Translations under genes and position numbers: made by a program
Source: Verrucomicrobiales bacterium
GTDB lineage: Bacteria > Verrucomicrobiota > Verrucomicrobiia > Verrucomicrobiales > DEV007
Length of the DNA: 64,000 nucleotides
Assembly: GCA_041749135.1 (NCBI GenBank)
Contig: JBGTBW010000146.1
Span: 9,573 to 73,572 of the forward strand
Direction: 5' to 3'
Part shown: positions 3,701 to 41,459 of the stretch, piece by piece
Layout: each line of letters starts with the position of its first letter
How positions within the stretch are numbered: the first letter of the stretch is position 1
The notes under the pieces: model-generated
What the model was told of the DNA's origin: nothing
The model's input: only the letters and a program-made list of their open reading frames with translations
The model's database searches: none

Positions 3701-6700
3701 AACCGGGCGCGAGGAGCATCCCCTTCCCCGCGTCATCGATGGCCACGTGGACCGCGAGGGTTGTCGTGGCCGGGACTCGCAGTGAAACGCTCTCAAAGGG
3801 CATGGCAGTCTCGCGGTCGGTGATGCTCAGGCTCCGGATCCCGGACGGGGCGGGAAGCCCCGCGCCGTTGAACCACACCTGGTTGGGCCGGCCGAAGCCT
3901 CCGCCGAAGACCAGGTCCAGCGCTCCATCGCGGTTGAGGTCCCCCGCCACGATCGAGGTCATCGCATGCTCCGGTCCCGGCGTGCCTGCCTCTGGTGCGA
4001 AGGTTCCGGCGCCGTCGTTTACCAGCAGGACGGAACGGTTCACCGACTGCCCATCCACGAACTGGCTCTGAAGCACAATCAGATCGAGCGCCCCGCTCCC
4101 GTCGAAATCGCCCAGCGCCGCCCCCTGGACCGTGTTCCACGCGAAGGTCTGCGCCGTGGCCGTGAACTGTCCGGAGCCGTCGTTCAACCAAACCAGCGCT
4201 CCGGATCCGCTCCGCCGCACCGTGAGGATGTCCGCCGCGCCGTCCCCATTGACATCTCCGACCAACGGAAAGGCGCCACTTTCGCCGAGAGCCTGGAGAG
4301 TGTCGCGGAACACGCCGTGACCGTCGTTGAGCCAGACGAGCGTGGGCCCCAAGAACTGCCCGGCCACCAAGTCGAGGCTGCCGTCGTTATCGACGTCGGC
4401 GATCCGCACCTCGGTAAAGGTGCGGTTCGCGAAGCCGATGTCCGCCATGGCCACGGTGGATTCAGTGAACACGCCCGTTCCATCGTTCAGCCAGACCCGA
4501 GCGGCGGTGGTGTTGACCGTCACCAGATCCACGTCGCCATCTCCGTCGAGGTCCGCCGCCGCCACGCCCTCGAACAGGACGTCTGCCAGGGACTGTGAAC
4601 CCTCGGTGAAGCCACCGCTCCCATTGTTGAAGAAGAGCGCCAAGCCGTAGGGCTCCGAACGATGCGTGGTGATCACGTCGAGATACCCGTTGCCGTTGAG
4701 GTCCGCCAGTTGCGCCCTCGAAATGTATTTCGAGCCGACCGCCTGAGTCCCCTCCGCGAATCCCCCGGAGCCGTTGTTGAACCAAACCCGCCCGCCATAA
4801 GGGGCCGGCTGGCCGATATAGCCCAGCGCGTTCGGAACGAACAGGTCCGGATGCCCGTCTCCGTTCAGATCCCCGATAGCGATGCCGAAAGAGTTGTACT
4901 CCTCGTTGCCAATCCGCTGAAGGCTGTCGGTGAACGCGCCGGCTCCCGCCGGAGCCTCGATGACGAACTCCGATAGGACCGGCGCCGGGAGAATTTCGCC
5001 CTGCGCCCCGGTCAGTCCTGTGAGAACCGTCACGGTGACCCGTTCACCCGCGAAAAACCCGGTGTCCGGATCGAGGGTCAGCGTCAGGATCGTCCCGTCC
5101 AGTTCGCTCCGCACTCCGCGCGGTCCACTCTGTTCACCGGCCACCGAGAGGTTGGCCTCCACAGTGGCGGGATTGAGCGGGCGATTGAAACGGAGCACGA
5201 CGGGTTCATCGCCGGGCGCCGCGGGGTGATTGGGCGAAGGAAGCATCTCGACCACGCGCAGGGTCGAGCGCACGTCGAGCGTCACCGTCGCCGGCGCGGA
5301 GGTCCCCAGGCCGTCCGTGGCCCCATAGGTGAACGCATCGGCTCCCGTATGTCCCGGCGCCGGCGTGTAGACGAACGAGCCGTCGCGCCGAAGGGTGAGC
5401 GCGCCGTGAGCGGGCGATGTCACGAGCACGGCGGTGAGCGGATCGCCATCCGCATCGGCATCATTCGCCAGGACTCCCTGCGAGGCGGCGACCATAAAGG
5501 TATCCCCCGCGGGCGCCAGGTAAGGTCCGTCGTCGTCCGCCACCGGAGCGGTATTCCCGATCTTCACCCGGGCAGGCGCCGAGGCCGCCTGCGCATCCGC
5601 GGCCCGGTAGGTGAACACATCCACCCCGGCGAAGCCCGCCCCCGGAGTGTAGGTGAACCCTCCATTCGCGCTGAGGACCACGCTCCCACGCGTGGGAGGG
5701 GTCACCAGTTGGGCCTGCATCGGACCGCCGTCGCCCGGCAGGTCGTTCGCCAGCGGGCCCTGAGCGGCGGCAACGACGACCGGAGACGTTCCGTTGGCCG
5801 GATAAAAGTCGTCGCGGGACACCGGGGCGGACTGATTGAGCCAGACCTCATTGCCGGAGCCGATGGACCGGCTGTTGTTGACCACGAATACGTCGAGGTC
5901 GCCGTCGCCGTCGAGATCCGCAATCGCCGCATGATAGCTGTCCGAGGCGCCCAGCAGCGGGCCAGAGAGGGCGAATCGGGCGGAACCGTCATTGAGCAGG
6001 ACGGCGTCCCCGCCGCCCTGGCCCGCGCCATCGCGGACATCCGCCTGCCACACGTCGAGGCGGCCGTCCCCGTTCAGGTCGCCGAGCCCGGCCCCGAGGG
6101 TGAAGCGCCGGTGAATCTCGTAGGGTGAGCGATGGAAGTTCGCAGCACCGTCGTTGAGCCAGACCTCGTTAGCGCCGGAGTTGACCTGGTGCACAACCCA
6201 GGCGTCGAGGGCGCCGTTGCCGTCGAGGTCCGCCAGCACGACCTGGCGCGCCCACGTGGGGTTGACCACGCCGGACCGTAGCGAGAACCGCGCCCCGCCC
6301 TCGTTGATGAGCAACTGCCCGCCCTGGATGCCGGCAAGGTACACATCCATGAACCCATCGTTGTTCAAATCACCTACAGCACCGGCGGACGCCGACGTGA
6401 TCGCGATGGCGGAGCCGGCATCGAGCGTGAAGTTTCCATGGCCGTCATTCCGCCAGACCCAGGCCCACGTGGCGTTGACTCCCAGCAGGTCGAGCGCTCC
6501 GTCCCCGTCAAAGTCGCCCGCCAGCAGGAAACTGGGCGACCCGAACGGGAGGCTCGACAGACCGAATGTCACGACGTCGGCAGCGGGAAACTCGCCAAGG
6601 CCGTCATTGAATCCGATGCGCAGTTCCGTGCTCCGGCCGCCAAAGGCATTGTCCGCCTGACCAATCAGGACCAGGTCGGGATGACCGTTGCCATCGAGGT

Positions 6701-9700
6701 CCGCCACGAGCGGCGCAGAGCCACGGAAGGCGAGGTTAGGGTATTGAAGACCGAGAGATTCTTCGCGCTCGGTGAACGTGCCGTCACCCTGGTTCAGGTA
6801 AAGGCGCGGATGCGTGTCGCGGTTCCAAACCACCGCTTCGGACGCCCCGTCCCCATTCAGATCCGCCAGCGTCACGAACTCGCTGAATTCCGTGGTCGAG
6901 CTTCCCGCGAGAGTGCGCTCAAACACCGCGCTGCCCCGGGGAACGGCGGCGTGAAACCGCCAGGCGTGAGGCCGCGCAAGCTCGGCCGCCGCGCCGCCCC
7001 GAATGCCAGCCGACACATGGACCGTGATGGATTCCCCGGGAAGGAACGGCGCCGCCGGGACCAGGGTCACTTCCGATCCGTTGACCGCCGCAGTGACCTC
7101 CCGGCGCCCGGTCAGGGACCCGAAGACGTTCAACCGCCCGGCCATCGAGGGCTCGTCCAGGGACTGGCTGAACGTGATCCGCACCGGACCGTCCGCCGGG
7201 GCGTCCGGCGTGTGGGCCGCCGGGTCCACCGACACAATCTCCAGCCGCTCGATGACCCGCAGCGACACCGTCGCCGGCCCGGACCAACTCCGCCCGTCGG
7301 AGGTCCGGTAGGTGAAGGTATCGACGGCGGCAATGCCTGGTTCCGGGGTGTACTGGAACGAGCCGTCGGAGGTGAGGAACAGCGTCCCGTGCGAGGGCGG
7401 CGTGACCAGTTCGACCACCAGACCGGCATCGCCGTCCGGGTCGCGGTCATTGGCCAGAACGCCCTCGGCGGCCGGCACGATCCGCGTCTCTCCTTCGAAG
7501 AGCGCGTAGACGTCGTCCTCGGCCACCGGCACGGCGTTCCCCAGCTTGACTCGCGCCGAGGGATAGAACCCATAACTGTACGGTGTGCCGGCGCTGTACA
7601 CGAAGGTGTCGGACCCGGGATGGTCAGGGTTGGGCGTGTAGCGGAACGCCCCGTCCTGCAGGAGCTCTAGCGTCCCATGGACCGGCGGGGTCGCCACCTG
7701 CGCCCACGCGGTTGCGGTCGCCGGCAGCTCCAGGTTCGGATCGAAATCGTTGGCCAGCACCCCCTCCGCAACCGGCGCCTCGATCACTTCGGCGCCGTCG
7801 TAGACATAGAAGTCGTCCGCCAGGATCAGCGCCCGGGCGCCCAGGGCGACGCGGATCGGACCGGACAGATAGCCGATCTCGTCCGCCCGCACCCGGTAGG
7901 TGAAGGCGTCGATGCCGCTGCTCAAGGAGTCGAACGATCGATACTCGAATCCCCCATCCAGATGCAGCGTGAGCGTGCCGTTGGCCACGTTGTCGACCAG
8001 TTCGGCGATTAGCTCGAGTCCGTGGGTGTTGAGATCGTTGGCCAGGACCCCGCCGCCGGCGTCCACGTCCAGGTAAAAATAGGCGTCGACGACGTTGTTG
8101 AGATCGAACGACACGAAGGAGTAGTGGTCCGGTCTCGCCTCGGGAGCGTCCGCCTCGCCCGTGACCTGGATGGTGACGGTGACCGGGTCCGATTCCAGGT
8201 CGCCGTCGGTCAGGAAGTAGCGGAACGAATCAGTCCCCCGGTAGGACGGAGGGGGTGTGTAGGTGAAACTGCCGTCGGCCCGCAGTTCCAGTTCACCATG
8301 TTCGGCATACACAGGCACGCGGGCCGCCCAGCTGCCGTCCGGCCAGTCGCCGAAGTATTCGAGGTCCTCGTACGGCGCCCCTGGCCACCGGGTCAAAAGA
8401 TCGTACAAGCGGCCCTCCACCCAGACATCGGTACGCACCGAAAAGTCGTCACCGTCCGGGTCCGATGCCCCCTGCAACAAGCCATGGGAGCGTGGCAGCT
8501 CGATCACGCCGTTCTTTTCGATTGCGAAGGTCTGCGGAGCTGCCGGCACGGGTGGCCGGTTGCGGATGATCCCGAAGGTCCGGGTCTCCGTGGGGAAGAA
8601 GGACGAACCCGCCGCGCTGGTCAGGGTGTCCCGCACCGTGACGTTCACCGTTTCGCCGCGGATAAACCTTTCGGAGAAGCTCAGGGTTGCCTCCCGTCCG
8701 TCGCCGGACAGCGCGACGGAGAAGTCCTGCCGCCCGCTGCTTGAACCGCTTACTTCGACGTGGGATCCCACGGCATCCCCGGTCACCGGTTCGTCGAAAG
8801 ACAGCACCACTGGGGTCCAAGCCTCACCTTCGTCGCCCGGCTCCGGGGTCAGCGTCAGCCAGTTGAGTCGTGAGTGGACCGTCAGAGTAACAGTGATCTC
8901 CTCCGACACCCGCCCGTTGAAATCCTGAATCCGGTAGATGAACCGGTCCTCGCCGTTGAAGAAAGTGTTCGGCAGGTAGGTGAAGCTCCCGTCCTCGAAC
9001 AGAGACAGGGAGCCGTGCTCTGGATCGGTGACAAGCCCGGCACGGGGCGAGTCGCCGAAGTCATTCGCCAACACGCCGTCCGCAGCGTCCACCGTTAGCA
9101 GGATGTCCTCGATCCCCTCGTAAGCCTCCGGCTCCCCGGACGGAGCCACGCTCTCGAACGCGCCGATGTCGCGCGGTCCGCCGAGCGCGCGAAGAACTCC
9201 CCTCTGATCCACGGCATCCCCGGGAAAGAGAGTCCCCGGCGTCCCGTTGTCCCGCGCTGGACTGCCTGTACGCAGCGCGTGAGTGCGGGTGCGGCCCCCG
9301 TTGTGTTCGAGGGGCCCCAAGCCGGGATCCTGCGCCGTCCGGAACCGCGCGGCTTCGGGGAGGAGCAAGTCGCTCAGCAACGCCGCCTGCCCGCCCGTCC
9401 CGTCGGTATCGAGGTTGTAGCCGGTTGAGGTGATGAAGGTCTGGAGGGTCAGGGTGCGGTTGTAAACGTCATCCGGCCGATTGTGGGCTAGAATGGTCCC
9501 GGCGATGTTGACTGCCGACACCCCAAGGACCTCCGGCTCCAGGCTCGCCTTCAGCGAACTCATCGCCGTCGAGTAGATCCCCCCGCCCTGCCGGGTCAGG
9601 CCGTTGATGGCCTCATTGCCGTGGATCGTGCAGTTGAACAGCGTGGCGATCGCCGTGCCCTCAGTGAAGCTACCGTTGTAGAGGCCCCCGCCGAAGGCCG

Positions 9701-12368
9701 GCAGCGGGATGCCCAGCGTGCCCTCGCCGTCCACCGTGTTGCCGGTCAGCGTGCAGTTCTGCATCGTCACGGTGCTGATGAGGATCGTGCTGGACCCGGT
9801 GCACTCGTTGTAGACTCCCCCGCCCTTCGACTTCCCCTTCGCGATGTTCCCGCTGACGGTGCATCCGGTGAGGATCGCCTGGCCGCCGTTCTCGTTGCGC
9901 AGCCCGCCCCCGTAGGCCGCGATGACCCCGGAAACACGGTTGTCCGCCAGGGTGCTGTCCTGGGCCAGCAGGACGCCGTAGTAGTCGTTGGCGATGGCCC
10001 CGCCGCCCCCGGAGGTGTTGTCGTTGAGATCGCAGCGCAGCACGCGGACAAGGCTGCCGAAGGTGGTCTTCATCGCTCCGCCGCTCGACAGGAACAGCGC
10101 CTCCGCCTCGTTCTCGTTCAGTTCAGAATCGGTCACTTGCGTGAAGGAGGCGAAACTGTGGACCGCTCCGCCCATCGCCAGGATCGTCGTGGCGCGAACC
10201 CGGTTTTCGTTGAGCTTCGAGCCGGTCACCTCGAGGGCGCTGAAAAATGAACTGATGCCCCCGCCATGGCTGCCCAGCGCGCTCGCCGATTCGTTGCCGG
10301 TCAGCACCGAGTTCCGGATCTTCAATAGCCCGAGGTCGGTGTGAATGCCGCCCCCGAAAACCAACGCCCGCGGCGTGGCCAGGTGATCGGCCACGTAACA
10401 GCGCAGCCAGCCGCCGTCCACCCAGCAGACATCCATCAGATGGCGCGCGGCGGCGACTCCGGTCCCGGCCTTGTTCCCCTCGATGACCGAGTCCATCACC
10501 TCGGTGACGGGTGAGCCGAGCCCAAGCCAACCGGCAACATTGGAGAAGGGATCGTTGCCCGCGGAGCCGTCGCCCAACTGGTCCTCCATGTATTCTTCGG
10601 CCGATCCGGCCTGTTCGGCGCGGGTGGAAGACCTGGCGACGTACTCGGCCTCGACCGCCTCGGCCTGGGATTCGCTGGTCGGATCCAAGGGCGGCGTGAC
10701 ATCGGCGAGGTCCGACCGATGCCCGGTCAATTCCTCCGACGCGGTGCGTCCTCCGCCCACGCGCAGGGTGGAGACGTTCAGGCCGCTGCTGCTGATGCCA
10801 CCCCCGTTCCGTGCGGCCGCGTTGTTGCGGATGATGCTATTTCGGACCGTCAGCCGCGCCGCACCGCGGTTGTAAACGCCGCCCCCCTCGCCGCCGAAGT
10901 AATCGAACGCCCGGCAGTCGCGCACCTCGCAGCGGTCCAGCACCACCGTGCCCTGGTTGTAGATTCCGCCGCCGCTCGGGGCCAGACCGTCGATGACGGT
11001 GAGATCCTCCAGATGGAGCGTCCTGCCCGGAAGCACGGTGAACACCGATCCCAGCAGTGCGCCCGAAACGAAGGTCCGCCCGATGCCCTGACCGCGGATC
11101 GTCAGGTCGCGATCCACGATGACGTTGTCGTAGTACGTCCCGGCTTCGAGGCGGATCTCGTTGCAGCGCGGGTTGTCGAGCGCCGGCAAAAGATCGCCCA
11201 TATGCGGTGGAGCAATGACGAGCGCGGTGTCGTCCGTGAAGCCCCCTGTGAAGTCGAGGACCCCAAGGCTGCCCCAACCGGCGTTGTTTGAATAGTACCA
11301 ACCCACTCGCCGGGTCCCGCCATGCCCTCGTGCCAGCACATCGAGCGGCTCGTAGTGGTGAATGGGATCGTAGCCGCTGCCGCCATCGAGCAGTTCCCCC
11401 TGCGTGATCGTTCCCGTCGGCAAGAGGCTCGCGGTGAACCCGACCTTGACGGTCGCGCGCGCCTTAGCCTGCCGTCCTCCCCGGGGAGGCAGCGTCATCG
11501 ACACCGGGTCCGTGGACAACTGCGCCCCGGACAGTTCCCAAGCCGTGTCTCCCAGCAGATTCGCGACTCGGCCATGTCCCGAGCTGTCCGTCGCCACATT
11601 CCCGGTCCCGTCATCCATCCGCCAGTACGCAATGAGACCGGGCTCCGTGACCGCAAGCTGACCGTTCATGTTTCCGGCGATCTGCGACGGCGTTCGCGCT
11701 ACGGTCCAGATCCGGACTTCGTCTACGCTGCCATCAAGGTAGCTCCCCGGACAAAACCCGATCGTGACCGGGCTGTTGTTCGAGCCTTGCGGCCGGATCA
11801 GCTCTTTCCAAGGCTGGCCGAACGCGTTGAGTTGGGGCGACTTCGCCATGAACACTCCGTTCACGTAGAGCCGAGCCTCCGGAATGGACGCGTCATACAC
11901 TGCCGCCAGATGCACCCACAATCCGGCCGGGATGTTCCAAGGGTACGCATCGAGATAGCTGTTTGCGGCATTCAAATCGAATACCGGCACGCCGTCGCGC
12001 CGGAGCCCTAACAACCACTCGCCCGGCCCCGGCGCATGTCTCCAGCCCGGCCGCGACATCTTGGCCACCGCCGGACTCATGCCGCCCAGCTCGGCTTCAG
12101 CATAGCGGACCATCCAGGCCTCGATCGTGAAGCTGTCGTCCGGTCCGATCGGAATCCCGTGCGCCTCCGCCTTCGAGGTGACCCCATTGAAGAGCAGGGC
12201 TCCTCCGGCCACGTCCTGGGCTCGGGCGTCCGGCATGGCCAAGCTTGCCCAGACCACGGAAACCACCAGCGCCGCGCGGAGCCAGGCGTGCCGCACGCGT
12301 CCGGAGGGGGTTGCCAGTTCGGCATGACAGGGGCCGTCGCCGGCCTCAACAAACGTGTGTATTCTCAT
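744..12368 (-). CDS. Giant (~3,870 aa) secreted adhesin-like protein. Signal peptide, LamG/concanavalin-like domain, parallel beta-helix repeats (GGGIYN/GGGVYN/GGGLYN), many FG-GAP/VCBS repeats (DLDGDGxxDL), tandem cadherin-like VLANDxDxDGD domains, C-terminal FYR tail.
   Basis: 4,019-codon ORF in the six-frame track. A likely true start is the ATG at 12368 (MRIHTF...AWLRAALVVSVVWASLAMPDARA signal-like segment), which overlaps the stop of the upstream receiver gene (ATGA). Repeats are read directly from the translation: ADLNGDG, DLDGDGDLDVFVVN, GVLANDRDPDGD (x6+), beta-helix GGGxYN repeats, LamG motif DGSVDEVRIWTVARTPSQI. Confidence 0.85.
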   Translation of the reverse strand: MRIHTFVEAGDGPCHAELATPSGRVRHAWLRAALVVSVVWASLAMPDARAQDVAGGALLFNGVTSKAEAHGIPIGPDDSFTIEAWMVRYAEAELGGMSPAVAKMSRPGWRHAPGPGEWLLGLRRDGVPVFDLNAANSYLDAYPWNIPAGLWVHLAAVYDASIPEARLYVNGVFMAKSPQLNAFGQPWKELIRPQGSNNSPVTIGFCPGSYLDGSVDEVRIWTVARTPSQIAGNMNGQLAVTEPGLIAYWRMDDGTGNVATDSSGHGRVANLLGDTAWELSGAQLSTDPVSMTLPPRGGRQAKARATVKVGFTASLLPTGTITQGELLDGGSGYDPIHHYEPLDVLARGHGGTRRVGWYYSNNAGWGSLGVLDFTGGFTDDTALVIAPPHMGDLLPALDNPRCNEIRLEAGTYYDNVIVDRDLTIRGQGIGRTFVSGALLGSVFTVLPGRTLHLEDLTVIDGLAPSGGGIYNQGTVVLDRCEVRDCRAFDYFGGEGGGVYNRGAARLTVRNSIIRNNAAARNGGGISSSGLNVSTLRVGGGRTASEELTGHRSDLADVTPPLDPTSESQAEAVEAEYVARSSTRAEQAGSAEEYMEDQLGDGSAGNDPFSNVAGWLGLGSPVTEVMDSVIEGNKAGTGVAAARHLMDVCWVDGGWLRCYVADHLATPRALVFGGGIHTDLGLLKIRNSVLTGNESASALGSHGGGISSFFSALEVTGSKLNENRVRATTILAMGGAVHSFASFTQVTDSELNENEAEALFLSSGGAMKTTFGSLVRVLRCDLNDNTSGGGGAIANDYYGVLLAQDSTLADNRVSGVIAAYGGGLRNENGGQAILTGCTVSGNIAKGKSKGGGVYNECTGSSTILISTVTMQNCTLTGNTVDGEGTLGIPLPAFGGGLYNGSFTEGTAIATLFNCTIHGNEAINGLTRQGGGIYSTAMSSLKASLEPEVLGVSAVNIAGTILAHNRPDDVYNRTLTLQTFITSTGYNLDTDGTGGQAALLSDLLLPEAARFRTAQDPGLGPLEHNGGRTRTHALRTGSPARDNGTPGTLFPGDAVDQRGVLRALGGPRDIGAFESVAPSGEPEAYEGIEDILLTVDAADGVLANDFGDSPRAGLVTDPEHGSLSLFEDGSFTYLPNTFFNGEDRFIYRIQDFNGRVSEEITVTLTVHSRLNWLTLTPEPGDEGEAWTPVVLSFDEPVTGDAVGSHVEVSGSSSGRQDFSVALSGDGREATLSFSERFIRGETVNVTVRDTLTSAAGSSFFPTETRTFGIIRNRPPVPAAPQTFAIEKNGVIELPRSHGLLQGASDPDGDDFSVRTDVWVEGRLYDLLTRWPGAPYEDLEYFGDWPDGSWAARVPVYAEHGELELRADGSFTYTPPPSYRGTDSFRYFLTDGDLESDPVTVTIQVTGEADAPEARPDHYSFVSFDLNNVVDAYFYLDVDAGGGVLANDLNTHGLELIAELVDNVANGTLTLHLDGGFEYRSFDSLSSGIDAFTYRVRADEIGYLSGPIRVALGARALILADDFYVYDGAEVIEAPVAEGVLANDFDPNLELPATATAWAQVATPPVHGTLELLQDGAFRYTPNPDHPGSDTFVYSAGTPYSYGFYPSARVKLGNAVPVAEDDVYALFEGETRIVPAAEGVLANDRDPDGDAGLVVELVTPPSHGTLFLTSDGSFQYTPEPGIAAVDTFTYRTSDGRSWSGPATVSLRVIERLEIVSVDPAAHTPDAPADGPVRITFSQSLDEPSMAGRLNVFGSLTGRREVTAAVNGSEVTLVPAAPFLPGESITVHVSAGIRGGAAAELARPHAWRFHAAVPRGSAVFERTLAGSSTTEFSEFVTLADLNGDGASEAVVWNRDTHPRLYLNQGDGTFTEREESLGLQYPNLAFRGSAPLVADLDGNGHPDLVLIGQADNAFGGRSTELRIGFNDGLGEFPAADVVTFGLSSLPFGSPSFLLAGDFDGDGALDLLGVNATWAWVWRNDGHGNFTLDAGSAIAITSASAGAVGDLNNDGFMDVYLAGIQGGQLLINEGGARFSLRSGVVNPTWARQVVLADLDGNGALDAWVVHQVNSGANEVWLNDGAANFHRSPYEIHRRFTLGAGLGDLNGDGRLDVWQADVRDGAGQGGGDAVLLNDGSARFALSGPLLGASDSYHAAIADLDGDGDLDVFVVNNSRSIGSGNEVWLNQSAPVSRDDFYPANGTSPVVVAAAQGPLANDLPGDGGPMQAQLVTPPTRGSVVLSANGGFTYTPGAGFAGVDVFTYRAADAQAASAPARVKIGNTAPVADDDGPYLAPAGDTFMVAASQGVLANDADADGDPLTAVLVTSPAHGALTLRRDGSFVYTPAPGHTGADAFTYGATDGLGTSAPATVTLDVRSTLRVVEMLPSPNHPAAPGDEPVVLRFNRPLNPATVEANLSVAGEQSGPRGVRSELDGTILTLTLDPDTGFFAGERVTVTVLTGLTGAQGEILPAPVLSEFVIEAPAGAGAFTDSLQRIGNEEYNSFGIAIGDLNGDGHPDLFVPNALGYIGQPAPYGGRVWFNNGSGGFAEGTQAVGSKYISRAQLADLNGNGYLDVITTHRSEPYGLALFFNNGSGGFTEGSQSLADVLFEGVAAADLDGDGDVDLVTVNTTAARVWLNDGTGVFTESTVAMADIGFANRTFTEVRIADVDNDGSLDLVAGQFLGPTLVWLNDGHGVFRDTLQALGESGAFPLVGDVNGDGAADILTVRRSGSGALVWLNDGSGQFTATAQTFAWNTVQGAALGDFDGSGALDLIVLQSQFVDGQSVNRSVLLVNDGAGTFAPEAGTPGPEHAMTSIVAGDLNRDGALDLVFGGGFGRPNQVWFNGAGLPAPSGIRSLSITDRETAMPFESVSLRVPATTTLAVHVAIDDAGKGMLLAPGFTGSNEDTYELAGPAGTVEAALRAMVFVPSRYRRPVGESETAVFTLTVTMGDFTRLDGDTTVTVLAENDPPLAVDDGGAGFSTVATAALTTPSVMDNDTDSNPGDTFGIVDVVTLGTIGRVVHQGGGVFHYDPEGRFPLPPGTSVTDSFLYVVEDVHGARASARVTVEVHGENHPPSAPDLVIALPENSGDNVIDNAILTQATDADVGDRTLITAIDASGVLGSVSLAPDGTLSYNPAGSGPKLGPGGERMDAFGYTVSDRQGSTASGRVTIRIQGRNDAPTAGPVTITVAENEDPVEIAALLLATAADPDPGQTAQLRVSGVERSLTQGQAGVLGTAFFYSPARRFDGLQEGETATDQFDYLVEDPFGATGRGTVTVTVTGVNSSPMAGEAHAVIALEPVTVDLTASLLANAEDPDDDRSTLRVAAIDTEGTLGEVILSGETVHYTPPAGLVVPRDEYRTDQFRFAVRDPGGAESGFALATVHLRGVQTPPALDVDWAGQPVQYSDAIAPVSVVAGDAETPGEDLVVRISWRRADDAAPFEPGVPDGLSWALTATEANAVRWILSGRARVAPGDYRFRVEVEDATAATEEAEFEITVLPEDARSSFAGVLFQGASSPTSSTTMLTLRATVWDLSTLPSDDLEHDPYPADIRKATVTFVDRTTGLVIAGDLPVQAPDPDAPELGMVSFDWPVDIGSADSESYSIGMIIGGWFDRDSREDDVLVTVSRPLAGDMVTGGGFLVLSDSDGIVPGDAGSKLDFGLNAKFIQGGKTLQGSVDLTLRSDERVYQIKSSALTSLAVQDNRSVFTARVVISDVTGPGKGITVDKQATLQVLLTDRGEPGRNDSLAVAVWDRDDRLWFSSHWNGRRTVEQTLGGGNLKIHSKGPGSKALARTAPGGFGAGFNGPWIEGGAGGGSPALANASQTPRDYRIAFPARPGTEYLIEASSDLITWTPVARVPSLSDRIVYIDSSDAPLRFYRARAEVRE

Positions 12369-16686: not shown

Positions 16687-17150
16687 CGTGAGATCCTTGT
16701 AAGAAAACCCGCTCGAAAGCAGCCCGCAAATACAACCTCATCTCCCCAGAATCACCCCCAACAGCGGGAGAGCATCCTGAATGTCCTTTACCTTAAACTG
16801 CAGGAATTTCCATGAGCCAGGTGGAGTGAGACCGCGGACGCGGTCTCTTTAGTGCGACGCTTCGCGGCGCTTTCCCACGCGCGCCCGGCCCGTGAGGATG
16901 AAAACGATGAAATCCTCCAATTCACCGAAAAGAGCGCCCAAGGAGCGCGAAACGCGTCGATTTTTCCTTGACTGAAGCGCCGGTTCCGGCGGGATTTACC
17001 GGAGTGAGCCAGGATGCCCAGTCTGCAGCTCTACCTCCCCCCAACCGCCTCCTCTGACCGAGCGGGACCGGCAACTTTGAAAATCGAATTCCTGCTCTTC
17101 GACGATGGTTTTCTGAGCGTGCAGCCATGTGTGGAAGGAGAAACGGCGTA

Positions 17151-23166: not shown

Positions 23167-26100
23167 TTATCGGCGGACGCCGCGGTAGTAGCCGTCCGCC
23201 TTGCTCATGCGGTCCGGGTCATTGTCCATGAACTCCGTTCCGCCCGGGACATCGACGGCGATCGCCTCCCACGCAGCCGGCTCCATGGTCTCGGAGTACT
23301 CAACGTCCCAAGCGCCGCCGGCGGGTAGGGTCAAGGACAGACCTTCATCGGTCCAATGCACGTTCGAGAGCGGCGGCACGACGGCGCCTGGGGCCGGAGT
23401 CTGAACGGGGTTGCCGTCGGCGAGCGACAAACCGTTCAGCCCATAGTCATAGACCTGAGACGCTTCCCCTGCGCTGAGCGCACGGTTCCAGATCGCCACT
23501 TCCGACACCAGCCCGCTCCACATCTCGAGCCCGTTCTGCCCTCCCAGGTAAAGCGGCTGCGGGTTAATGGGCGTCCCCGTGATCGTCCGCGTCGCGATTT
23601 GGATCGCGTCGCGGTAATAGGTGAGGTTTGCGCCGTCTTTGACCACCAGGTTATGGGCCCATACGCCCACCGGGAACATCGTGGCCGCATCGCCTGCGTT
23701 CTCCCCAATCGCGTTGAAGTGCCATTCAAAGACTCGCGGCGTGATTTTGATGAATTCCCGGGGATCAAAGTCCGCACCGCTGGGAGCCCATCTGTTGCCG
23801 AACACGATGTTGTTGTTGTCCGTTTCAGCCGAGTTGGCCCAAAAACTCCAGGTGAACCCGTTTTCCAGCGTCATGCCTGGAAGGATCGTTCCGAAGTCGA
23901 CGTAAGACATCGCTGAAGACCCGTAGACGACTCCGCGCGCTGGGTCCTCGGTCCAAGTTCCGTCAGGCTGAATGATCGTGCCGTGGTTTTCGTTCCCGCT
24001 CGAATCCATTGCGACCGCTCCGGCGCCTTCGTTGAAGTGCCAGTATCCGAGCAGGCCGGGAACTCCACCGCTGGGCGCCGCCCGGATTCCGTAGAGCGAA
24101 CCGGTGTCAAAGCCTGCGTCGACGATGAAATTGGCTCCGCCGTGCGACGCTGGGTTGTCCGGGTCGGTCCAGTCTCCGTTGAAATAGCGCACGTCGACCG
24201 GATAGTATCCCGGAGACGGGAAGTTATAATTTCCGCTGACCGTCACGTTCCCGTGGCTATTGTCGTTGGCGATGACCAGTTGACCGGCGATGTAGAGCAC
24301 CGAGCCGTCGTCCGAGGTGAAGGTGAAGGTCTGCTGGCCTGGGGCATCGACTCTCAGGTATCCCTGGAAGCGCAAGACACCGTCGTCCAGGTTGCCTGCT
24401 GTACCTGGGCTGAGGGAGGCGGCGTCTGGACCGAGCCAGTTGGCAATCGGGGTGAGATCGTCGCCTTGGTAGTTAAACCTGGTCGCCGAGAAAGTTCCCG
24501 TAGCGTTGGTATTGAAGACGTTGTCGTCCGCCCAACCCGAGTTGGCTCCGCCGTCACCCGCGCGGTGCATGGGCTCGCCGTCGATTGGCACGGTTTTGGG
24601 GTCAAGATGCCAGTAGCTGGCGAGCAGACTGCCCTGGGGCCCGAGATCGTCGGGTTCATCGATGGGGGGCTCGACTTCCAGCCCCGCCATGTAGTTCACG
24701 GCGTTGAGAAATGCCGCAGCGCCGGTTGCGGTGAGGTTGTATTTGCCTGCGTCTCCGATGACGCTTCCATCCGGCTCACGGCTGCCTGCACAAAAGAGCA
24801 TCCGCGGTCCGGCTGCGACGGTCCCAGCGGGCCACTCGGCGACGACCACGCCGCCGCCGCCTGAGGCAATCCGTGTTCCTCCATTGATCACTGGATCGGT
24901 GGCAAGTGAAGTTCCGCGGTCCACCGCGACGTGCCAAGGAGCAGTGACTCCAACGTTGATCTCCAGGCCGTCGAAGACAGGGTGACCGGGCTGGTCGGCT
25001 TGTATTTGGGCCGGGGTGGCGTCGATGAGACCCTCGCCCCCAAACCAACCCCAGCGGCTGCTGCGGCTGTTATAGGGCGTCATTAGGATCAGCGGGGCTG
25101 TGATGAGATCGTCCCAAACAGCGTGATTGAAGGTTCCGCTGGTGGTTTTGCGGCTCACTACGACGAGGTCAACGGCGTTGAGGACCGCCTGCTCTTCGGC
25201 TGTCGGATTTGAGATCAACATTTCTGTAACCGTATGACCCTGGGCGGTGAGGGCCTCCTTGAATTCCTGGCCCGCCGGAGTGTCCACTTCGCTGATCCAG
25301 ACGATAGTGCGTGGAGGAATGTCCGGCCCGGTATCCTGCACGATCCGGACATAGTCGAACCCCACGATTTCGTTCCACCAAGTGGTCAGTGCGGAGAAGC
25401 GGATCACGAGGTTCGTGGCTCCGTCGGGGATGTTGAAGACGGCCTCTTTGAACACGGGGTCCAAGCGAGTGGTCCCGTTGGTGAAGTACTTGTCGTTGGC
25501 GGTCGGTGCGGAGAAATGGGTTAAGACAGAGAAGTTGCCGCTGTTGTGGGGGTCGATCAGGATGTCAAGATAATCGCTGGTCTCGAAGTCCAGAGTGGTG
25601 GCGGCCAGAAGAACTTTGAGTTTGAGGCCGTTTTTGCCGCTGACGTTGACGGGGTTGAGGGTGAGGGTTTTGGGCGCCGTACCGTATTTATCCAGACCCG
25701 CACCAGCGAAGAATCCGGAGCCTTCGAACTCGAGAAAGGCTCCGCCGCCGAAGACCTGACCGCCTTCGTCCGGGCCATTGATGCACACGATCACCGGGCG
25801 CTCTTCGAGAACGGTTCGCGGCTTCTCGTATTTGGTGATAGCGATTTCTCCTTCGAGGTTGATCGGCAGCACGTCGAGCCCCACTCCCTCCCAGTCGGCC
25901 AACGGAGCCCAGACGCTCTGGTCGTCGAGGGGATCGTTCTGCCCTGTGCCAGGCTGTTGGGTGAAGAAGATTTCGGAGCCGAACTCGGCGGTTGGGCTGT
26001 AGGCTCTCCATTCGAATGCGTAGGCGCCCGCTGCGGCGAAGGTGAAGTCGCCATAATTCGTTGTCGCCTCTATCTGGTTAGCAATGATGGCGACCTGGTC

Positions 26101-27222
26101 CTGCTCGATGACTGGGTCATTCGCGTCGATGCCGTTCCCATTGGTATCGATCCGGAGGCTGCCGCCCCCTGCGACCCAAAGTGCAAACCCATAGGAGCCG
26201 GCGGATTTCACGCTGATCTGACCCGTGCCGGCGATGGCAAAGCTGCCGACGGGGTTTCCCGGAGGCTGACGGTCTCCGGCGATGCCGCCGCCAGAGAAAT
26301 TGCCGCTGGCTCCGCTCTCAAGGTCGGCGATGTTGGAAGTGCCCTCGTCGACCATCGTTTCGATTGTACCCGCGACCATCTGTGCGACTTCGGCAAGGTT
26401 TTCGACGGGCGGAATATCGACGATCGGATAGGTGGCGACGACGGCCGATCCTTCCGGAACGAGAGTTCCCGGCATGTGGAGGGGCACTTCGCCCGTGAAG
26501 AAGGGAAAGCTTCCGGTCAACCCGGCAGCGGCGGGGTGGTCTGGAAGCTGAACTGTCACGTTGCCGAGATTGAAGTTTCCCGTTTCGCCAATCGAACTGA
26601 CAAGCTCGTCATCGTGGTCGGGCCCATTGTAGGTGAGGTATGGGACGGGGTAATTGGTGAAACGGCTCGGGCTGGCGGCGAGGCTTGAGTGAATCACGAG
26701 GTCGAAGTTCGCGTTGGGAGGTACGGGGGTTGCCACGTCGTCCCCGGTGAACGTCGCACCCTTGGCGGTCAACCGTTCGACAATGATTTGGTCGCCGGGC
26801 CCTCCTGCCGGCGGAGACATGAGGACACGCAGATTGGTTTTGTCTTTTGTCAGCCACGCGATGGTGGCGTCGAGCATGGCGAGGCCCTGCGCGGACACCT
26901 GAGCGGGCTCCAGCTCGCTCGACCAAGCGATCACTGCGCGCCGGGCCGGCGTCGCCGCGGGGACGCCGACAAGGGAGACGTCAAAGCTATGGCCCCAGTA
27001 GACCGGGCCGACCTGTTCGACGTCATTGATTCCATTGCCCGGATGGTCTGCGACTTCCGAGATGAGGCCGCCGGCGACAGTATAGCGGGTTCCGGCCCCG
27101 TTACCGTTGAAACCTTCCTCGAAGAGGACGGTTTCTTCGGCGGAACCCGGCACGAGAGACAGTAAGAGAAAGAGTGCAACAACCAGCCTCTTGCTCGATT
27201 GAGGTCTGAGGATTTTGCGCAT
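23167..27222 (-). CDS. Large (1,351 aa) secreted protein with two PA14-like modules, a LamG (Laminin_G_3-like) domain and the C-terminal FYR-type tail
   Basis: Signal peptide MRKILRPQSSKRLVVALFLLLSLVPGSA. PA14-like FQGYLRVDAPGQQTFTFTSDDGSVLYIAGQLV...VDVRYFNG. LamG-like LLGYWHFNEGAGAVAMDSSGNENHGT...GFTWSFWAN...VAIWNRALS. Ends ...GAWDVEYSETMEPAAWEAIAV...GYYRGVRR. Confidence 0.8.
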   Translation of the reverse strand: MRKILRPQSSKRLVVALFLLLSLVPGSAEETVLFEEGFNGNGAGTRYTVAGGLISEVADHPGNGINDVEQVGPVYWGHSFDVSLVGVPAATPARRAVIAWSSELEPAQVSAQGLAMLDATIAWLTKDKTNLRVLMSPPAGGPGDQIIVERLTAKGATFTGDDVATPVPPNANFDLVIHSSLAASPSRFTNYPVPYLTYNGPDHDDELVSSIGETGNFNLGNVTVQLPDHPAAAGLTGSFPFFTGEVPLHMPGTLVPEGSAVVATYPIVDIPPVENLAEVAQMVAGTIETMVDEGTSNIADLESGASGNFSGGGIAGDRQPPGNPVGSFAIAGTGQISVKSAGSYGFALWVAGGGSLRIDTNGNGIDANDPVIEQDQVAIIANQIEATTNYGDFTFAAAGAYAFEWRAYSPTAEFGSEIFFTQQPGTGQNDPLDDQSVWAPLADWEGVGLDVLPINLEGEIAITKYEKPRTVLEERPVIVCINGPDEGGQVFGGGAFLEFEGSGFFAGAGLDKYGTAPKTLTLNPVNVSGKNGLKLKVLLAATTLDFETSDYLDILIDPHNSGNFSVLTHFSAPTANDKYFTNGTTRLDPVFKEAVFNIPDGATNLVIRFSALTTWWNEIVGFDYVRIVQDTGPDIPPRTIVWISEVDTPAGQEFKEALTAQGHTVTEMLISNPTAEEQAVLNAVDLVVVSRKTTSGTFNHAVWDDLITAPLILMTPYNSRSSRWGWFGGEGLIDATPAQIQADQPGHPVFDGLEINVGVTAPWHVAVDRGTSLATDPVINGGTRIASGGGGVVVAEWPAGTVAAGPRMLFCAGSREPDGSVIGDAGKYNLTATGAAAFLNAVNYMAGLEVEPPIDEPDDLGPQGSLLASYWHLDPKTVPIDGEPMHRAGDGGANSGWADDNVFNTNATGTFSATRFNYQGDDLTPIANWLGPDAASLSPGTAGNLDDGVLRFQGYLRVDAPGQQTFTFTSDDGSVLYIAGQLVIANDNSHGNVTVSGNYNFPSPGYYPVDVRYFNGDWTDPDNPASHGGANFIVDAGFDTGSLYGIRAAPSGGVPGLLGYWHFNEGAGAVAMDSSGNENHGTIIQPDGTWTEDPARGVVYGSSAMSYVDFGTILPGMTLENGFTWSFWANSAETDNNNIVFGNRWAPSGADFDPREFIKITPRVFEWHFNAIGENAGDAATMFPVGVWAHNLVVKDGANLTYYRDAIQIATRTITGTPINPQPLYLGGQNGLEMWSGLVSEVAIWNRALSAGEASQVYDYGLNGLSLADGNPVQTPAPGAVVPPLSNVHWTDEGLSLTLPAGGAWDVEYSETMEPAAWEAIAVDVPGGTEFMDNDPDRMSKADGYYRGVRR

Positions 27223-27524: not shown

Positions 27525-27950
27525 ATGCTGGAGAATGGCAGGCCCGCCAGGCCCCCCGTGTTCATAAAGAACGAAAGGCTGGTGATCGATCCCGCTTACG
27601 AGAAGTATCTCGGCTTGATCCTTCTCGACCCGTCCGAGCCGCCGATGGTCTGGGAAGTGGGACGAAGCGACCGCCTCTACCGGAACGAGGGCCCCGGGCC
27701 GGACGGACTCCCCCGGTTCACCGACGTCAGTCAGGCAGCCGGAATTGAAGATCGCGATCATGCGCTTTCATGCCTCTGGACCGATCCGAACGAAGATGGC
27801 TACCCAGACCTCTTTGTCGCAAACGACTATATTGAGGCGGATCGTTTTTACGCCAACAACCATGACGGCACATTCCGGGAAGTCAGCCGGGCCGCGCTCG
27901 GGCACACGGCGTGGTTCTCGATGTGCTGCCGTTGGCCAGCTTTGTTCTGT
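27525..27950 (+). pseudogene. Isolated fragment of an ASPIC/UnbV (CRTAC1-like, FG-GAP/VCBS) repeat protein
   Basis: LYRNEGPGPDGLPRFTDVSQAAGI...DPNEDGYPDLFVANDY...FYANNHDGTFREVS are two canonical ASPIC/UnbV repeats. There is no N-terminal context or signal peptide, and the frame degenerates after ~140 aa. Confidence 0.4.
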
Positions 27951-28150
27951 TTAGACGAACATTGCTCCTTGGGGCAGTTTATTTGCCCCATAGGCCAAGA
28001 GCGGTTCCGATCTCCATTCCGCCAGCTTCTCTCTTAACATCCCATCCTCCTGGAACAACACCGCGCCGAAGCAGGCGATTCTGCTCGGTTGACATGCCGT
28101 CAAATCCCACCTATTCCCTGCTTGAGATCCTTGGCACAGGGATACAGACG

Positions 28151-29536
28151 ATGCAGATTCGAATGCCTTGGAAACGGGCTTGGAGTATGGCCTTGGCGCC
28201 GGCCGCTGTGGCCTGCCTGGCTGGGGAGGGACCGCCAGCGAGCAAGCACGACCTCACGCCCGATTCGTTTGCGAGGCTACACGCCCTGGTGCGGCCGCAA
28301 CCCACTGAGTGGCGGCATTTGCGCGTACATTGGATGACCGACATTGTCGCCGCGCGCAAGAAGGCCGCCGCCGAAGACAAGCCCCTGGTAATCTGCTACA
28401 CGGGCGGAGCTGGCTACAACGAACCGCTTGGGGTTTGCTGAAGCGCCGCCGCCAGCCACCTGTCAGGTGGCTCCGATCTCTATACCGATGAAGCGATTCG
28501 CCTGCTGAACGAGAAGTTTGTCGGCTTTGCTCCCGGCTGGTACATTAATGACGACGACCCAGTGTACCAAGCCGCATGGAAGCGTTTCTATCTTGCTCAG
28601 TCCCGTCCCGACGAAGGGGATGGCTGGATGAAAGGCACGCAATTGGTGCTGATGACTTCCAATGGCAAATTGCTTTCCGGCTCCCTGGAATACGGCGATC
28701 GCCAAGGTCTTCACCAGGCGCTGGAGGAAGTGCTCGCGTCTTACGGGAACCTTCCGGAGCGGGATCGCCGGCCGGCGAAGGTCGAAGGCGAAGTCAAACC
28801 ACAGCCGCCTCCGCCCGAAGGCGGTTTGGTGCTGACCATTTACGATCGCCCACTTGGACTTAGCCAGGAAGGCGCCTATCGCTTGCCGGAAGGGGACGAC
28901 TTCGGCGGATTGCGGACCGAGGCTCCATCCGGCCAACGAAGCTCGCTGTGGTTGAATGCTGAAGAATGCAGTGCACTCATCCCACGAGAACCGCAAGCCG
29001 GCCAGACCGTAGCGGTCTCCAGCAATCTCGCAAAGCGCATCTGGCTGTTCGGGCTCGTCCCGCAATCGCTCTGGGTGGTCGAAGGCGCCTGGTCGGCCGA
29101 TTCACTGCGCGAAGGTCAGATGCTGCTGACGGTCGAGGAAGCTTCGCCCGAACGGACGCGCCTTCGGATCCACGGCCACGCGCTGTTGGCAGGCATGAGC
29201 GAACACGAGGGCTTCCGCGATCTGGAAAAGCGCTATGACGCACGGCTCGAAGGCGTAATTGTTTACGATGCCAACAAGCAGAGAATCGTCCGCTGGGACA
29301 TGACCGCCCTGGGGGATTACGTGGGTGAGTGGTTTGCCAGCCATGTGCGCTGGCAAGCCGCCAGACCATCCGCTCCCTTGCGGTTGGCCTTCGCTTTTGA
29401 GTTGGACGAGACAGCCTACACGTTGCCGCCAGAGAGGCGTCGCCCCCGATCGTTCATACACGCCTATATCTTCCGTGAGAAGGAAGAGTATTTCTGGAAT
29501 CCCGAACAATGGGAGACAGATTCGAAGGAGAAATGA
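28151..29536 (+). CDS. Secreted protein with an N-terminal thioredoxin-like (DUF255/thioredoxin_7-like) domain interrupted by an in-frame TGA at 28439-28441. Candidate selenoprotein (Cys-Sec motif) or disrupted gene.
   Basis: Two track ORFs (27911-28441 and 28562-29536) are in the same frame and separated only by one TGA. Signal peptide MQIRMPWKRAWSMALAPAAVACLAG. ...KPLVICYTGG....GVC[TGA]SAAAS...LLNEKFVGFAPGWY... resembles the DUF255 KPIFLSIGYSTCHWCHVM...LLNENFV region, with the TGA at the redox-motif position. Confidence 0.5.
28454..28472 (+). promoter_or_regulatory. Perfect 19-nt palindrome (9-bp stem) 12 nt downstream of the in-frame UGA. Candidate bacterial SECIS-like hairpin.
   Basis: agccacctg-t-caggtggct is read directly from the sequence. 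Its position relative to the UGA matches the spacing of bacterial SECIS elements. Confidence 0.3.
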
Positions 29537-29648: not shown

Positions 29649-31100
29649 TCATTGATAATGAACAGTCCAATTTCCGCCCGTATCCCGCTGCACCCGCTGA
29701 TCTGCTCCAACACGCTCACCACGGCGGCACGTGAGGCGGCCAAACCCCTCCAGGACCTGCTCGAGGACCGGCAACGCCCGGCCTACTTGGCGTGCCCGAA
29801 TGAGAAAATTCCAGAGCCCTTCGAACTTCTTCCAACCTGCCGCATACGCCGCATGCCGCAGCGCCGGCAATGCCTCCCCGTGGTTTAGGGCGCCGCGGAG
29901 AATGGAACCCCAAGTGTAAAACTCGCGATAGGCCCTCAGATAGCCCTCTTCGAGATCCTCGGGACGAAGCTGCGCCGGACGGAACACGCAGTGGCGCGTG
30001 TCGTACAAGTCCCAGTCGCGGTGCAGCATCCGTCCGGCCGCCTCCATCCGTTCGTGCAGCGCCGTCGACGGATAGGGCGTGAGAATATGAAAGGTTGCCG
30101 TCTCAATCGATTGAGAAACCGCCCAGTTCACCGTACGGTCGAACACCTCGGGACCGTCGCTGTCCATCCCAAACACAAAGCTTCCATTCACCATCACTCC
30201 GAGCCCGTGCAACCGGCGAATGGCCTCGCCGTAGTCCCGGTGCAGGTTCTGCCGCTTTCCTTGCTCAACCAGATTGTCTTCGTCGAGAGTCTCGAACCCG
30301 ACGAATAGACTCCGCAAACCGCAGTCCACCGCCTTCTCCAACAGACCCGGGCGCAGGACGGAGGAAACAGTTCCGGCGGCCTGCCAAAGCCGCCCCATCC
30401 CCTTCATACCGTCGAAGAGCATCGATGCGAACCGCACGTTTCCAAGGAGATGATCGTCGAGGAAATACAAGTGTCGGCCGGGCAACCGTTCGATCTCGGC
30501 CAGGGCATCGTCGACCGATTGCAGGTAGAATCCCGTGCCGCCGCGAAAGAAGGCCTCCTTGTAACAGAAGTCGCAACTGTGCGGGCAGCCGCGCGACACG
30601 ACAATTGAGTTGGGAACCAGATAGAGATGGCGGCGGATCAGGTCGCGGCGCACCGGGGGAAGGCCGGCCAAGGAACGTTGCGACGGCGCGCAGTAGACCG
30701 GAGCCTGCCTGCCGCGACGAAAGTCGGCAAGGAACCGCGGCCAGGTGTCGTCCCCCGGACCGAGGAACACCGTGTCCGCATGCTGAGCGGCTTCCTCCGG
30801 CAAAGAGGTGACATGAAGCCCTCCCAGGCACACGTAGGCCCCGCGTGCCCGGTAGTGATCGGCGATCTCGTAGGCGCGCCGGGCAGAGGTGATATAGACC
30901 TGGATGACTACCAGGTCAGGCTCGTCGTCGAGACGGAGTCGCTCGACGTGTTCATCTTGGAGATCGACAACGTCCAGGTCCGGGTCGAGCCAGGACGCGA
31001 GACTCGCGAGCCCGAGTGGCGGGAACAACGAGTACTTGATGGGTCGAAAGAGCGGGCTCACCGCTTCGGTGAGCGCGGGCAAGATCATTTTGACGCGCAT
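29649..31100 (-). CDS. B12-binding domain radical SAM protein (class B radical SAM family)
   Basis: N-terminal cobalamin-binding-like region (DLVVIQVYITSARRAYEIA). Radical SAM cluster motif CPHSCDFC (CxxxCxxC). Confidence 0.75.
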   Translation of the reverse strand: MRVKMILPALTEAVSPLFRPIKYSLFPPLGLASLASWLDPDLDVVDLQDEHVERLRLDDEPDLVVIQVYITSARRAYEIADHYRARGAYVCLGGLHVTSLPEEAAQHADTVFLGPGDDTWPRFLADFRRGRQAPVYCAPSQRSLAGLPPVRRDLIRRHLYLVPNSIVVSRGCPHSCDFCYKEAFFRGGTGFYLQSVDDALAEIERLPGRHLYFLDDHLLGNVRFASMLFDGMKGMGRLWQAAGTVSSVLRPGLLEKAVDCGLRSLFVGFETLDEDNLVEQGKRQNLHRDYGEAIRRLHGLGVMVNGSFVFGMDSDGPEVFDRTVNWAVSQSIETATFHILTPYPSTALHERMEAAGRMLHRDWDLYDTRHCVFRPAQLRPEDLEEGYLRAYREFYTWGSILRGALNHGEALPALRHAAYAAGWKKFEGLWNFLIRARQVGRALPVLEQVLEGFGRLTCRRGERVGADQRVQRDTGGNWTVHYQ

Positions 31101-40591: not shown

Positions 40592-41459
40592 ATGGGTCTG
40601 CAATGTTGTCGCGACGAGTGAAACCATCCGGGGAACGATTCTCGGCGGCGGCTCCGCCGCCGGACTGGGAACCAGACAGACCCGAGAGCCAAGGTCCCTG
40701 ACGGGGAGGGCCGGCCTGTCCCCGGTACGAGAGGCGGCGCGGCGCCTGCCCGCGCCGTCGCCCCAGGAGCCGCCCCGGGACACCCGGCCGGGGCCGTCCT
40801 GGGGCCCAACCGAATCCACACGATGCCGTGCACCCCTCCCAACTTCCGCCCCCCACTGTGGATTCCTCCACAGGAACTTTCGTCCGGCGAGTCTTCCGGG
40901 GGGATGGAACCCGATCCCGTCCAGGATGGGAAAATGAAGAGCTTTTTTCAGGGGCATCACCCAGATGGCGATGCGGCTTCAAAGCCGAACTCTGTGCCGG
41001 AAAAGCGTCCGTCCCCTTCCCGGCGGCCCTCGGCGGCCCGTGGGAAACCAGTTGCCGATCCTAATCTTCACGATATTTTAAGAAGATCCGGGTTTCTAGA
41101 AATCCGGATCCGGTGACTGGTCTGGCTGCGCACGTTTCGTTTTGCATCCGGCCTTCCCCAGGGAGTTCCTTCACGGTGCTCCGTGTCGGCGCCCACAATT
41201 TCCGCGGGTAGAATACCCATGAATCGAACAGAACAGCACATCGGAACTTCTGCCGGCAGCGGCAGAGCTCAGGATGGTTGCGCTCCCTTGCTGGGAGCTT
41301 GGCTGAGGTGGTTCCACACTGTTCTTCTCGACACGGCTCCCTGGAAAAGTCGCCCGCTATGGCTCTGCCGGATCCGCCAGGTTCTCGAGGAACCTGGTGT
41401 AAGTCGCTTGCGACCTGATCTCCGGCGCGGGCCGAAACCTCAACCCAATTCATCATCCC

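Follow-up and report, generated by a model that had tools for sequence, protein, structure and literature searches.

An exported thioredoxin-like protein family of Planctomycetota and Verrucomicrobiota with a conserved in-frame UGA, very probably decoded as selenocysteine

The gene described here occupies positions 28151-29536 of a 64,000-nucleotide stretch of contig JBGTBW010000146.1 from a Verrucomicrobiales bacterium, referred to below as the window, and it is interrupted by a single in-frame TGA that we propose encodes selenocysteine (Sec, U). Judged by profile searches, the closest known relatives of its product are the VPGUxxT and Trx7/PDZ selenoproteins, and it is a member of neither. 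Models of these two groups were the only recurrent NCBIfam matches when 25 diverse members of the superfamily were surveyed for known folds (VPGUxxT in 8/25 and 4/25, Trx7/PDZ in 5/25). The VPGUxxT proteins (NF041382/NF041383; "hypothetical protein OS_HP5") likewise combine an N-terminal region of the Thioredoxin_7 type with another 200-250 residues, and in them, as in the window family, Sec is found at the first position of the CxxC-equivalent motif. However, family members score 10.9-14.4 bits against the VPGUxxT models, whose cut-offs are 275 and 350, with about the first 60 profile positions aligned, and the motif of the window protein is G-x-C-U-S-A-A (GVCUSAA) instead of VPGUxxT. The "(seleno)protein" naming also implies that Cys forms exist in the VPGUxxT family, whereas none was found in ours. 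The Trx7/PDZ (seleno)protein, NF041199, is Thioredoxin_7-like too, and its matches to the five members are weak (best expectation value, E, 0.021) and far below threshold. In its CxxU motif Sec comes second, whereas the window family aligns Sec with the first Cys and has no PDZ domain.

Thioredoxin-like proteins without Sec provide a second comparison. Thioredoxin_7 (PF13899), Thioredox_DsbH/DUF255 (PF03190, structure 3ira) and ERp18/TXNDC12 share with the window protein the order W...A..A..E.KP (beta1), active-site loop, helix and "..LLNE.FV.." (beta2). Unlike the window protein they are CxxC proteins, with Cys at position +3 where the window protein has Ala and its relatives Gly, and the loop from beta1 to the active residue is about 6-9 residues longer in the window subfamily (GGAGYNEPLGVC). 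Weak Thioredoxin_7 matches were found in 12 of the 25 members (best E 6.1e-05) and PF03190 matches in three, with no other Pfam family recurring; the relatives did not reach the Thioredoxin_7 gathering threshold, one scored example having 15.3 bits against a cut-off of 27. When the family profile was compared with PDB sequences, the Sec column aligned with the first Cys of CHWC in the DUF255 protein 3ira (E 0.017) and of CGAC in ERp18 (E about 0.2), both marginal values. The likeness to thioredoxin and DUF255 proteins proposed in the initial annotation is thus weak but consistent, and suggests by remote homology that Sec97 occupies the nucleophile position, the first Cys of CxxC, of a thioredoxin-like fold. 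The 364 residues that follow Sec were modeled with confidence by AlphaFold (predicted local distance difference test, pLDDT, 84.6). The model begins with two helices, two short strands and a third helix, followed by long antiparallel strands. Beta1 lies outside the modeled part, and the predicted helices and strands are compatible with the remainder of a thioredoxin fold. The C-terminal beta-rich domain had no significant counterpart in the PDB.

A 2026 catalogue of prokaryotic selenoproteins lists 119 families, nearly every one of which has a Pfam, NCBIfam or other InterPro-based domain identifier (PMC13188914). None of the 119 matches the window family by model. The motif of one catalogued family, TsoC of the tsoABC "three selenoprotein operon" (NF045708; NEPxGxxU), recurs letter for letter in the YNEPLGVCU of the window protein (28418-28441). 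TsoC was compared by motif and model only, and the NF045708 model matched neither the window protein (E up to 1) nor the 25 members (E up to 10). Searches of the literature for the family found nothing. The family is large, apparently uncatalogued and probably undescribed.

The adjacent Cys and Sec of the window protein also recall the GCUG center of animal thioredoxin reductase, where such a pair can form an eight-membered selenenylsulfide ring. In that flavoprotein, however, GCUG lies on a flexible C-terminal tail, whereas the window pair lies within the chain of an exported bacterial protein, at the active site of its thioredoxin-like fold, and its Cys is not conserved across the superfamily.

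A TGA codon conserved within one reading frame

The initial annotation described two open reading frames (ORFs) in the same frame, 27911-28441 and 28562-29536, that would give a 461-residue protein if the intervening TGA were read through. These coordinates, and those of a hairpin past the TGA, proved correct to the base. The translated product of 28151-29536 is 461 residues long and is interrupted by a single stop, TGA 28439-28441, which lies within ...KPLVICYTGGAGYNEPLGVC*SAAASHLSGGSDLYTDEAIRLLNEKFVGFAPGWY. Given the anatomy of the locus and its conservation among relatives, we are highly confident that the locus is a single intact gene and encodes an exported selenoprotein. Its features, all on the forward strand, are as follows.

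28151-29536, forward strand: complete gene, very probably for a selenoprotein; 461 residues including Sec97, with its own TGA stop at the end
28151-28228, forward strand: probable signal peptide, MQIRMPWKRAWSMALAPAAVACLAGE; extent approximate, read from the sequence
28244-28774, forward strand: Thioredoxin_7/DUF255-like domain, residues 32-208, spanning the TGA; from the superfamily alignment and weak profile matches
28436-28441, forward strand: TGC-TGA, the predicted Cys96-Sec97 pair; proposed recoded codon TGA 28439-28441
28454-28472, forward strand: SECIS-like stem-loop, with 5' arm 28454-28461, apical loop GUC 28462-28464 and 3' arm 28465-28472
28814-29533, forward strand: C-terminal beta-rich domain, about residues 222-461, highly conserved (e.g. 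GQRSSLWL, ERRRPRSF)

The N-terminus, MQIRMPWKRAWSMALAPAAVACLAGEG, is probably a signal peptide of the Sec export type, and the N-termini of homologues are similarly basic and hydrophobic. Alternative starts are present at ATG 28163 and ATG 28187, the latter being the start of the public gene call for the N-terminal half, which ends at 28441. The public calls include one fragment of 100% identity for each half of the gene, P0284 (84 aa) on the N-terminal side and P0001 (302 aa) on the C-terminal side. Within the Thioredoxin_7/DUF255-like domain, strand beta1 (KPLVICY) lies upstream of the TGA, and the helix and the LLNEKFV segment lie downstream.

To follow the codon through the family, 24 genome loci were retrieved with two peptides from the C-terminal domain, GLVLTIYDR and GQRSSLWL, so that retrieval was independent of the codon in question. 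Of these loci, 23 extend far enough to include the homologous codon, and it is TGA in every one, never TAA or TAG. Together with the window sequence the 23 form a close family of 24 sequences of about 55-75% protein identity, in which the TGA is flanked in one frame by YTGGAGYNEPLG[VIT]C before and SAASHHL[AS]GGS after. A further 80 metagenome loci, far more distant, were retrieved with the upstream peptide [KQR]A[AV][AVE][EQ][DGN]KP[IL][LF]; the codon is again TGA in 77/77 that reach the position, and where contigs are longer the frame runs on into a conserved ...W[TN].E.i.li...FV... segment. TGA is also conserved in additional paralogues, including all seven tandem copies of one Gemmataceae locus (L012). 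The TGA-bearing loci were assembled independently from many samples and lineages, with protein identity down to about 30%. Conservation of TGA at every locus, with protein conservation in frame on both sides, bears out the recoding that the initial annotation had proposed. Its suggestion that orthologues be aligned for Cys or Sec at this codon returned TGA throughout; no alternation between Cys and Sec was seen, and no Cys form.

The residue before the predicted Sec is less constant. A Cys codon at -1 is present in 24/24 close-family sequences, so the vicinal Cys-Sec pair that had been noted is invariant in the window subfamily. Most other subfamilies have Cys there too, but some have Thr, Ala or Val, and others have "GCT-U". 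The Sec column is one of ten invariant columns in the superfamily alignment. As the -1 residue varies among subfamilies, the invariant feature is the Sec and not the Cys-Sec pair.

Public protein databases hold the family as hundreds of half-gene fragments that end or start at the TGA. When the read-through protein was used as query, with U written as C, 404 homologues were found, and each of the best 120 covers at most 76% of the query and begins shortly after the TGA, at starts such as LYTDEA..., MLNEKF..., MYQAAW... or MKGTQL... that reflect the choice of the gene caller. With the 96 N-terminal residues as query, an exhaustive search matched 268 cluster representatives. Among the 150 of these that were listed, the large majority end 5-22 residues past the conserved KP, most of them on the Cys preceding the stop, and the few that extend further are explained by frameshifted reads (P0129, P0132, P0168) or by contig ends. 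A profile of the codon-spanning domain found 922 proteins; none of the best 120 is an intact protein spanning the codon, all being half-genes or artefacts.

We also considered whether the genetic code is reassigned in this genome, and rejected it. TGA ends 16 of the 27 long ORFs of the window, which makes it the commonest genuine stop there, and it also ends the window gene itself. TGA is therefore an ordinary stop in the window.

Two retrieved loci carry lesions elsewhere in the gene. L003 has a second in-frame TGA, 62 codons past the Sec codon (TGA at 2114), where all relatives have TGG. This is a sporadic nonsense change or a base-call error, and contrasts with the universally conserved Sec TGA; the metagenome-assembled genome (MAG) of L003 carries an intact second copy, L007. 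L025, on the same 2.2-Mb contig as L009, has kept its N-terminal domain, TGA and hairpin and has several frameshifts further downstream, so that it is either a decaying copy or affected by long-read indel errors.

The stem-loop downstream of the TGA

The hairpin is a perfect 19-nt palindrome (agccacctg-t-caggtggct, 28454-28472) that begins 12 nt past the TGA. As RNA, AGCCACCUG-U-CAGGUGGCU folds into an 8-bp stem with a GUC loop at -12.1 kcal/mol, with 20 nt between the UGA and the loop. Perfect hairpins of this kind (arms of at least 9 nt, center of at most 5 nt) are scarce in the window, which has only five distinct ones; the other four are at 889-909, 16828-16847, 40643-40662 and 53841-53862. 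The published consensus for bacterial selenocysteine insertion sequence (SECIS) elements has a loop of 3-9 nt, a stem of 4-16 bp, a G within the first two loop positions, a distance of 16-37 nt from the UGA and a minimum free energy of at most -7.5 kcal/mol (PMC13188914). The window hairpin lies within all four published constraints (8 bp, GUC, 20 nt, -12.1 kcal/mol).

Comparative data show that the hairpin is under constraint at the RNA level. In the 24 close-family sequences, codons +5 to +9 past the TGA (CAC CAC CTG kCA GGT) have zero third-position entropy, unlike neighboring conserved codons, which vary at the third position, and GGT is fixed within the hairpin although GGC dominates elsewhere. 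The stem-closing pair (position pair 14-30) is G-C in four sequences, A-U in 12 and A.C in eight. More distant stems differ in sequence from the window stem and from one another (GUGAGCC/GGCUCAC, GCGGUCC/GGACCGC, GGGAACCGG/CCGGUUCCC, GGGGGCC/GGCCUCC), and for 59 distant sequences covariation was scored on a MAFFT alignment that had been built with no reference to structure. The helix was 74.4% paired, compared to 59.3 +/- 1.4 in shuffles, and 0/500 shuffles reached this value. Both sides had changed in six of the seven helix pairs, with 65 double-change cells where 24.4 were expected. The covariation score was 0.396, compared to 0.154 in shuffles and 0.08-0.21 (at most 0.213) when the partners were slid. 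The equivalent helix of distant relatives thus covaries, which was the outcome sought when the initial annotation called for a structural check, and its description of a hairpin positioned like a bacterial SECIS element stands.

Under a strict filter for perfect-stem SECIS elements, 64 of 92 true sites passed, compared to 8.7% of 18,367 in-frame positions that were taken from these genes as controls. Of the 64 passing sites, 61 have a spacing of 18-22 nt between UGA and loop, and the loops include GGC, CGUGC, GUG, GUC and GGUC.

Distribution, tandem arrays and sigma factor fusions

The superfamily is mostly found in Planctomycetota, with some members in Verrucomicrobiota. Three MAGs labeled "uncultured Alcaligenaceae" (L017, L021, L023) have typical family members, and their labels look doubtful. 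In L012 (Gemmataceae MAG, contig SHZY01000147.1), seven mutually divergent paralogues lie in tandem on one strand over about 11 kb (800-11100). Their TGA codons end at about 815, 3128, 4490, 5849, 7256, 8610 and 9961, and each paralogue has its own hairpin. Four other loci (L013, L021, L064, L077) have two copies each.

In about 7% of the N-terminal cluster representatives, an extracytoplasmic function (ECF) sigma factor and a membrane-spanning segment replace the signal peptide. Such proteins include P0127, P0128, P0141, P0152, P0158 and P0161, and their sigma domains (Sigma70_r2 and r4_2) score above the Pfam thresholds. At the DNA level, L028 (95-2310), which falls in the subfamily of the window gene, and L035 (TGA at 3294) each encode, with no change of frame across the TGA, a sigma factor, a membrane segment, the Sec-containing thioredoxin-like domain and the beta domain. 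From this architecture, the selenoprotein part of the fused members would form the extracytoplasmic end of a sigma factor made in one piece, and the fusions suggest sensing or signaling for at least part of the family.

Among full-length homologues a single one lacks the TGA, and it too is sigma-fused. This protein, P0214 (L106:3001-4860), is a singleton in a collection of 5.8 billion proteins and lacks the entire GGAGYNEPLGVCU loop. Its structure model is poor in the thioredoxin region, with no strands there and pLDDT of 30-78. We take P0214 for a probable degenerate derivative rather than a Cys form.

Apart from paralogues of the same family, no gene is conserved next to family members. In the window, the gene is flanked by a short FG-GAP-like ORF that ends upstream (27525-28037, forward strand), a 1351-residue PA14/Laminin_G_3 protein (23167-27222, reverse strand) and a B12-binding radical SAM protein (29649-31100, reverse strand), and none of these three is kept beside homologues in other loci. 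The gene is single-copy in the 64-kb window, where no further family copies were found. A scan of the window for other credible selenoprotein genes yielded none, only off-frame Arg/Pro-rich artefacts.

Predicted decoding, alternatives and significance

From its anatomy and conservation, we propose that the UGA at 28439-28441 is read as Sec during translation. The stem-loop 12 nt downstream would act as a bacterial SECIS element that recruits SelB with Sec-tRNA(Sec) to the ribosome, a step we infer from established knowledge of bacterial Sec insertion. The product would have a signal peptide, a Thioredoxin_7/DUF255-like domain and a beta-rich domain of roughly 240 residues. The most likely chemistry is that the selenolate of Sec97 serves as the nucleophile of an extracytoplasmic redox reaction or as a redox sensor. 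We speculate that in the window subfamily Cys96 resolves the oxidized selenium as a selenenylsulfide, as in the GCUG of thioredoxin reductase, and that the beta domain binds substrate.

Several results weigh against this proposal or against parts of it. The folding energy of a 71-nt stretch did not differ significantly from that of its shuffles (z = -0.07) in window DNA of 62.5% G+C, and a sliding energy profile had other minima that were similarly deep. As energy is not decisive in G+C-rich coding DNA, the case rests on the comparative data from synonymous sites and covariation. The hairpin had no match in Rfam, where only a tRNA-Tyr was found at gathering thresholds. For the thioredoxin part, neither Pfam nor NCBIfam matched the window protein at E up to 1, and the marginal PDB profile values are equaled by a spurious match to Nesprin. 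The redox role and the resolving step attributed to Cys96 are interpretations, and several subfamilies lack that Cys. No selA, selB, selD or tRNA-Sec was found in the 64-kb window or in the retrieved loci, where the sole tblastn match to E. coli SelA, SelB and SelD queries was LepA in L059. Lastly, neither about 100 loci nor the listed top matches of three protein searches had Cys in place of Sec, and the family therefore lacks the Sec/Cys pair that selenoprotein pipelines customarily look for. Reliance on such pairs is a habit of prediction pipelines and not a mechanistic requirement.

Three other accounts of the TGA were weighed against selenocysteine. The initial annotation had itself named a sequencing error or a pseudogene, in which a sense codon such as TGC or TGG would have turned into TGA by accident. 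Gene callers do split the window gene in two, and sporadic lesions exist in relatives (TGG to TGA in L003, frameshifts in L025), however, the probability of this account is practically nil: a TGA at the exact codon in 23/23 and 77/77 independently assembled loci, with the protein conserved in the same frame on both sides, excludes it, and outside this codon the window gene is unbroken and retains the family-invariant residues. It is also extremely unlikely that the locus holds two real genes, with a 96-residue secreted peptide ending at the TGA and the downstream part made by reinitiation or from its own start. All public annotations treat the locus in this way, and a stable hairpin past the stop could in principle serve coupling. 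Against this, there is no conserved start past the TGA, the called starts (LYTDEA to MKGTQL) lie 13 to about 60 codons downstream, amino-acid conservation resumes at the first codon past the TGA (SAASHHLAGGS) and the frame is kept in 100/100 loci. Two genes would also cut the thioredoxin-like domain between beta1 and the active-site helix and leave the downstream product with no signal peptide. The third account accepts read-through and dispenses with selenium, the hairpin stimulating a near-cognate or suppressor tRNA (Trp, Cys, Gly or Arg) at the UGA. It would fit the lack of Sec machinery in the window and retrieved loci, and the lack of Cys homologues, which is atypical of selenoproteins. 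We nevertheless consider it very unlikely. The hairpin fits a SelB-type SECIS in size, in its G-first loop and in its spacing, and the codon coincides with the catalytic Cys of a thioredoxin-like fold, which is where Sec classically occurs. If an ordinary residue sufficed, a sense codon would be expected in some of the more than 100 lineages. Further, Planctomycetes, including Gemmata and Isosphaera, do have the Sec-decoding genes selA, selB, selC and selD (PMC4807772, S8 Table).

A different kind of alternative keeps the recoding and changes the chemistry, with Sec97, and Cys96 where present, serving as a soft ligand in the binding, sensing or detoxification of a metal or metalloid. We regard this as a serious alternative to the redox role, although an unlikely one. 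Several catalogued bacterial "CU" selenoproteins are metal-related (MerB-like SaoL, HgcA, CopZ-like and MbdU; Table 1, PMC13188914), most predicted Sec-ligand interactions involve metals (PMC13188914), and the ECF sigma fusions fit a sensor. The relatives by fold (Thioredoxin_7, DUF255, ERp18, VPGUxxT and Trx7/PDZ), however, are of the thiol-disulfide type, subfamilies with Thr, Ala or Val at -1 have no second soft ligand beside the Sec, and no metal-handling genes are conserved nearby.

With selenocysteine as the preferred reading of the codon, we tentatively put forward a broader proposal, to which we give somewhat less than even credence. The superfamily would be restricted to Planctomycetota and Verrucomicrobiota and consist of extracytoplasmic thioredoxin-like proteins in which Sec is obligatory. 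Present in at least seven tandem copies in one genome and repeatedly used as the outer sensor of membrane-anchored ECF sigma factors, it would form a selenium-dependent system for envelope sensing or redox chemistry, missed so far since the filters of selenoprotein catalogues need Cys homologues. A large family without Cys forms exposes what such filters overlook. The hundreds of public gene calls that are now split into two "hypothetical proteins" could be repaired with a Sec-aware family model. The absence of Cys forms, the tandem arrays and the sigma factor fusions make the family more than a routine addition to the thioredoxin-fold selenoproteins of bacteria. As Cys apparently never substitutes for Sec across more than 100 lineages and many paralogues, the family is well suited to testing the old question of why Sec is used in preference to Cys. 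In Planctomycetes, the sigma-fused selenoprotein domains and the seven-gene array suggest a selenium-dependent function in envelope sensing or redox chemistry.

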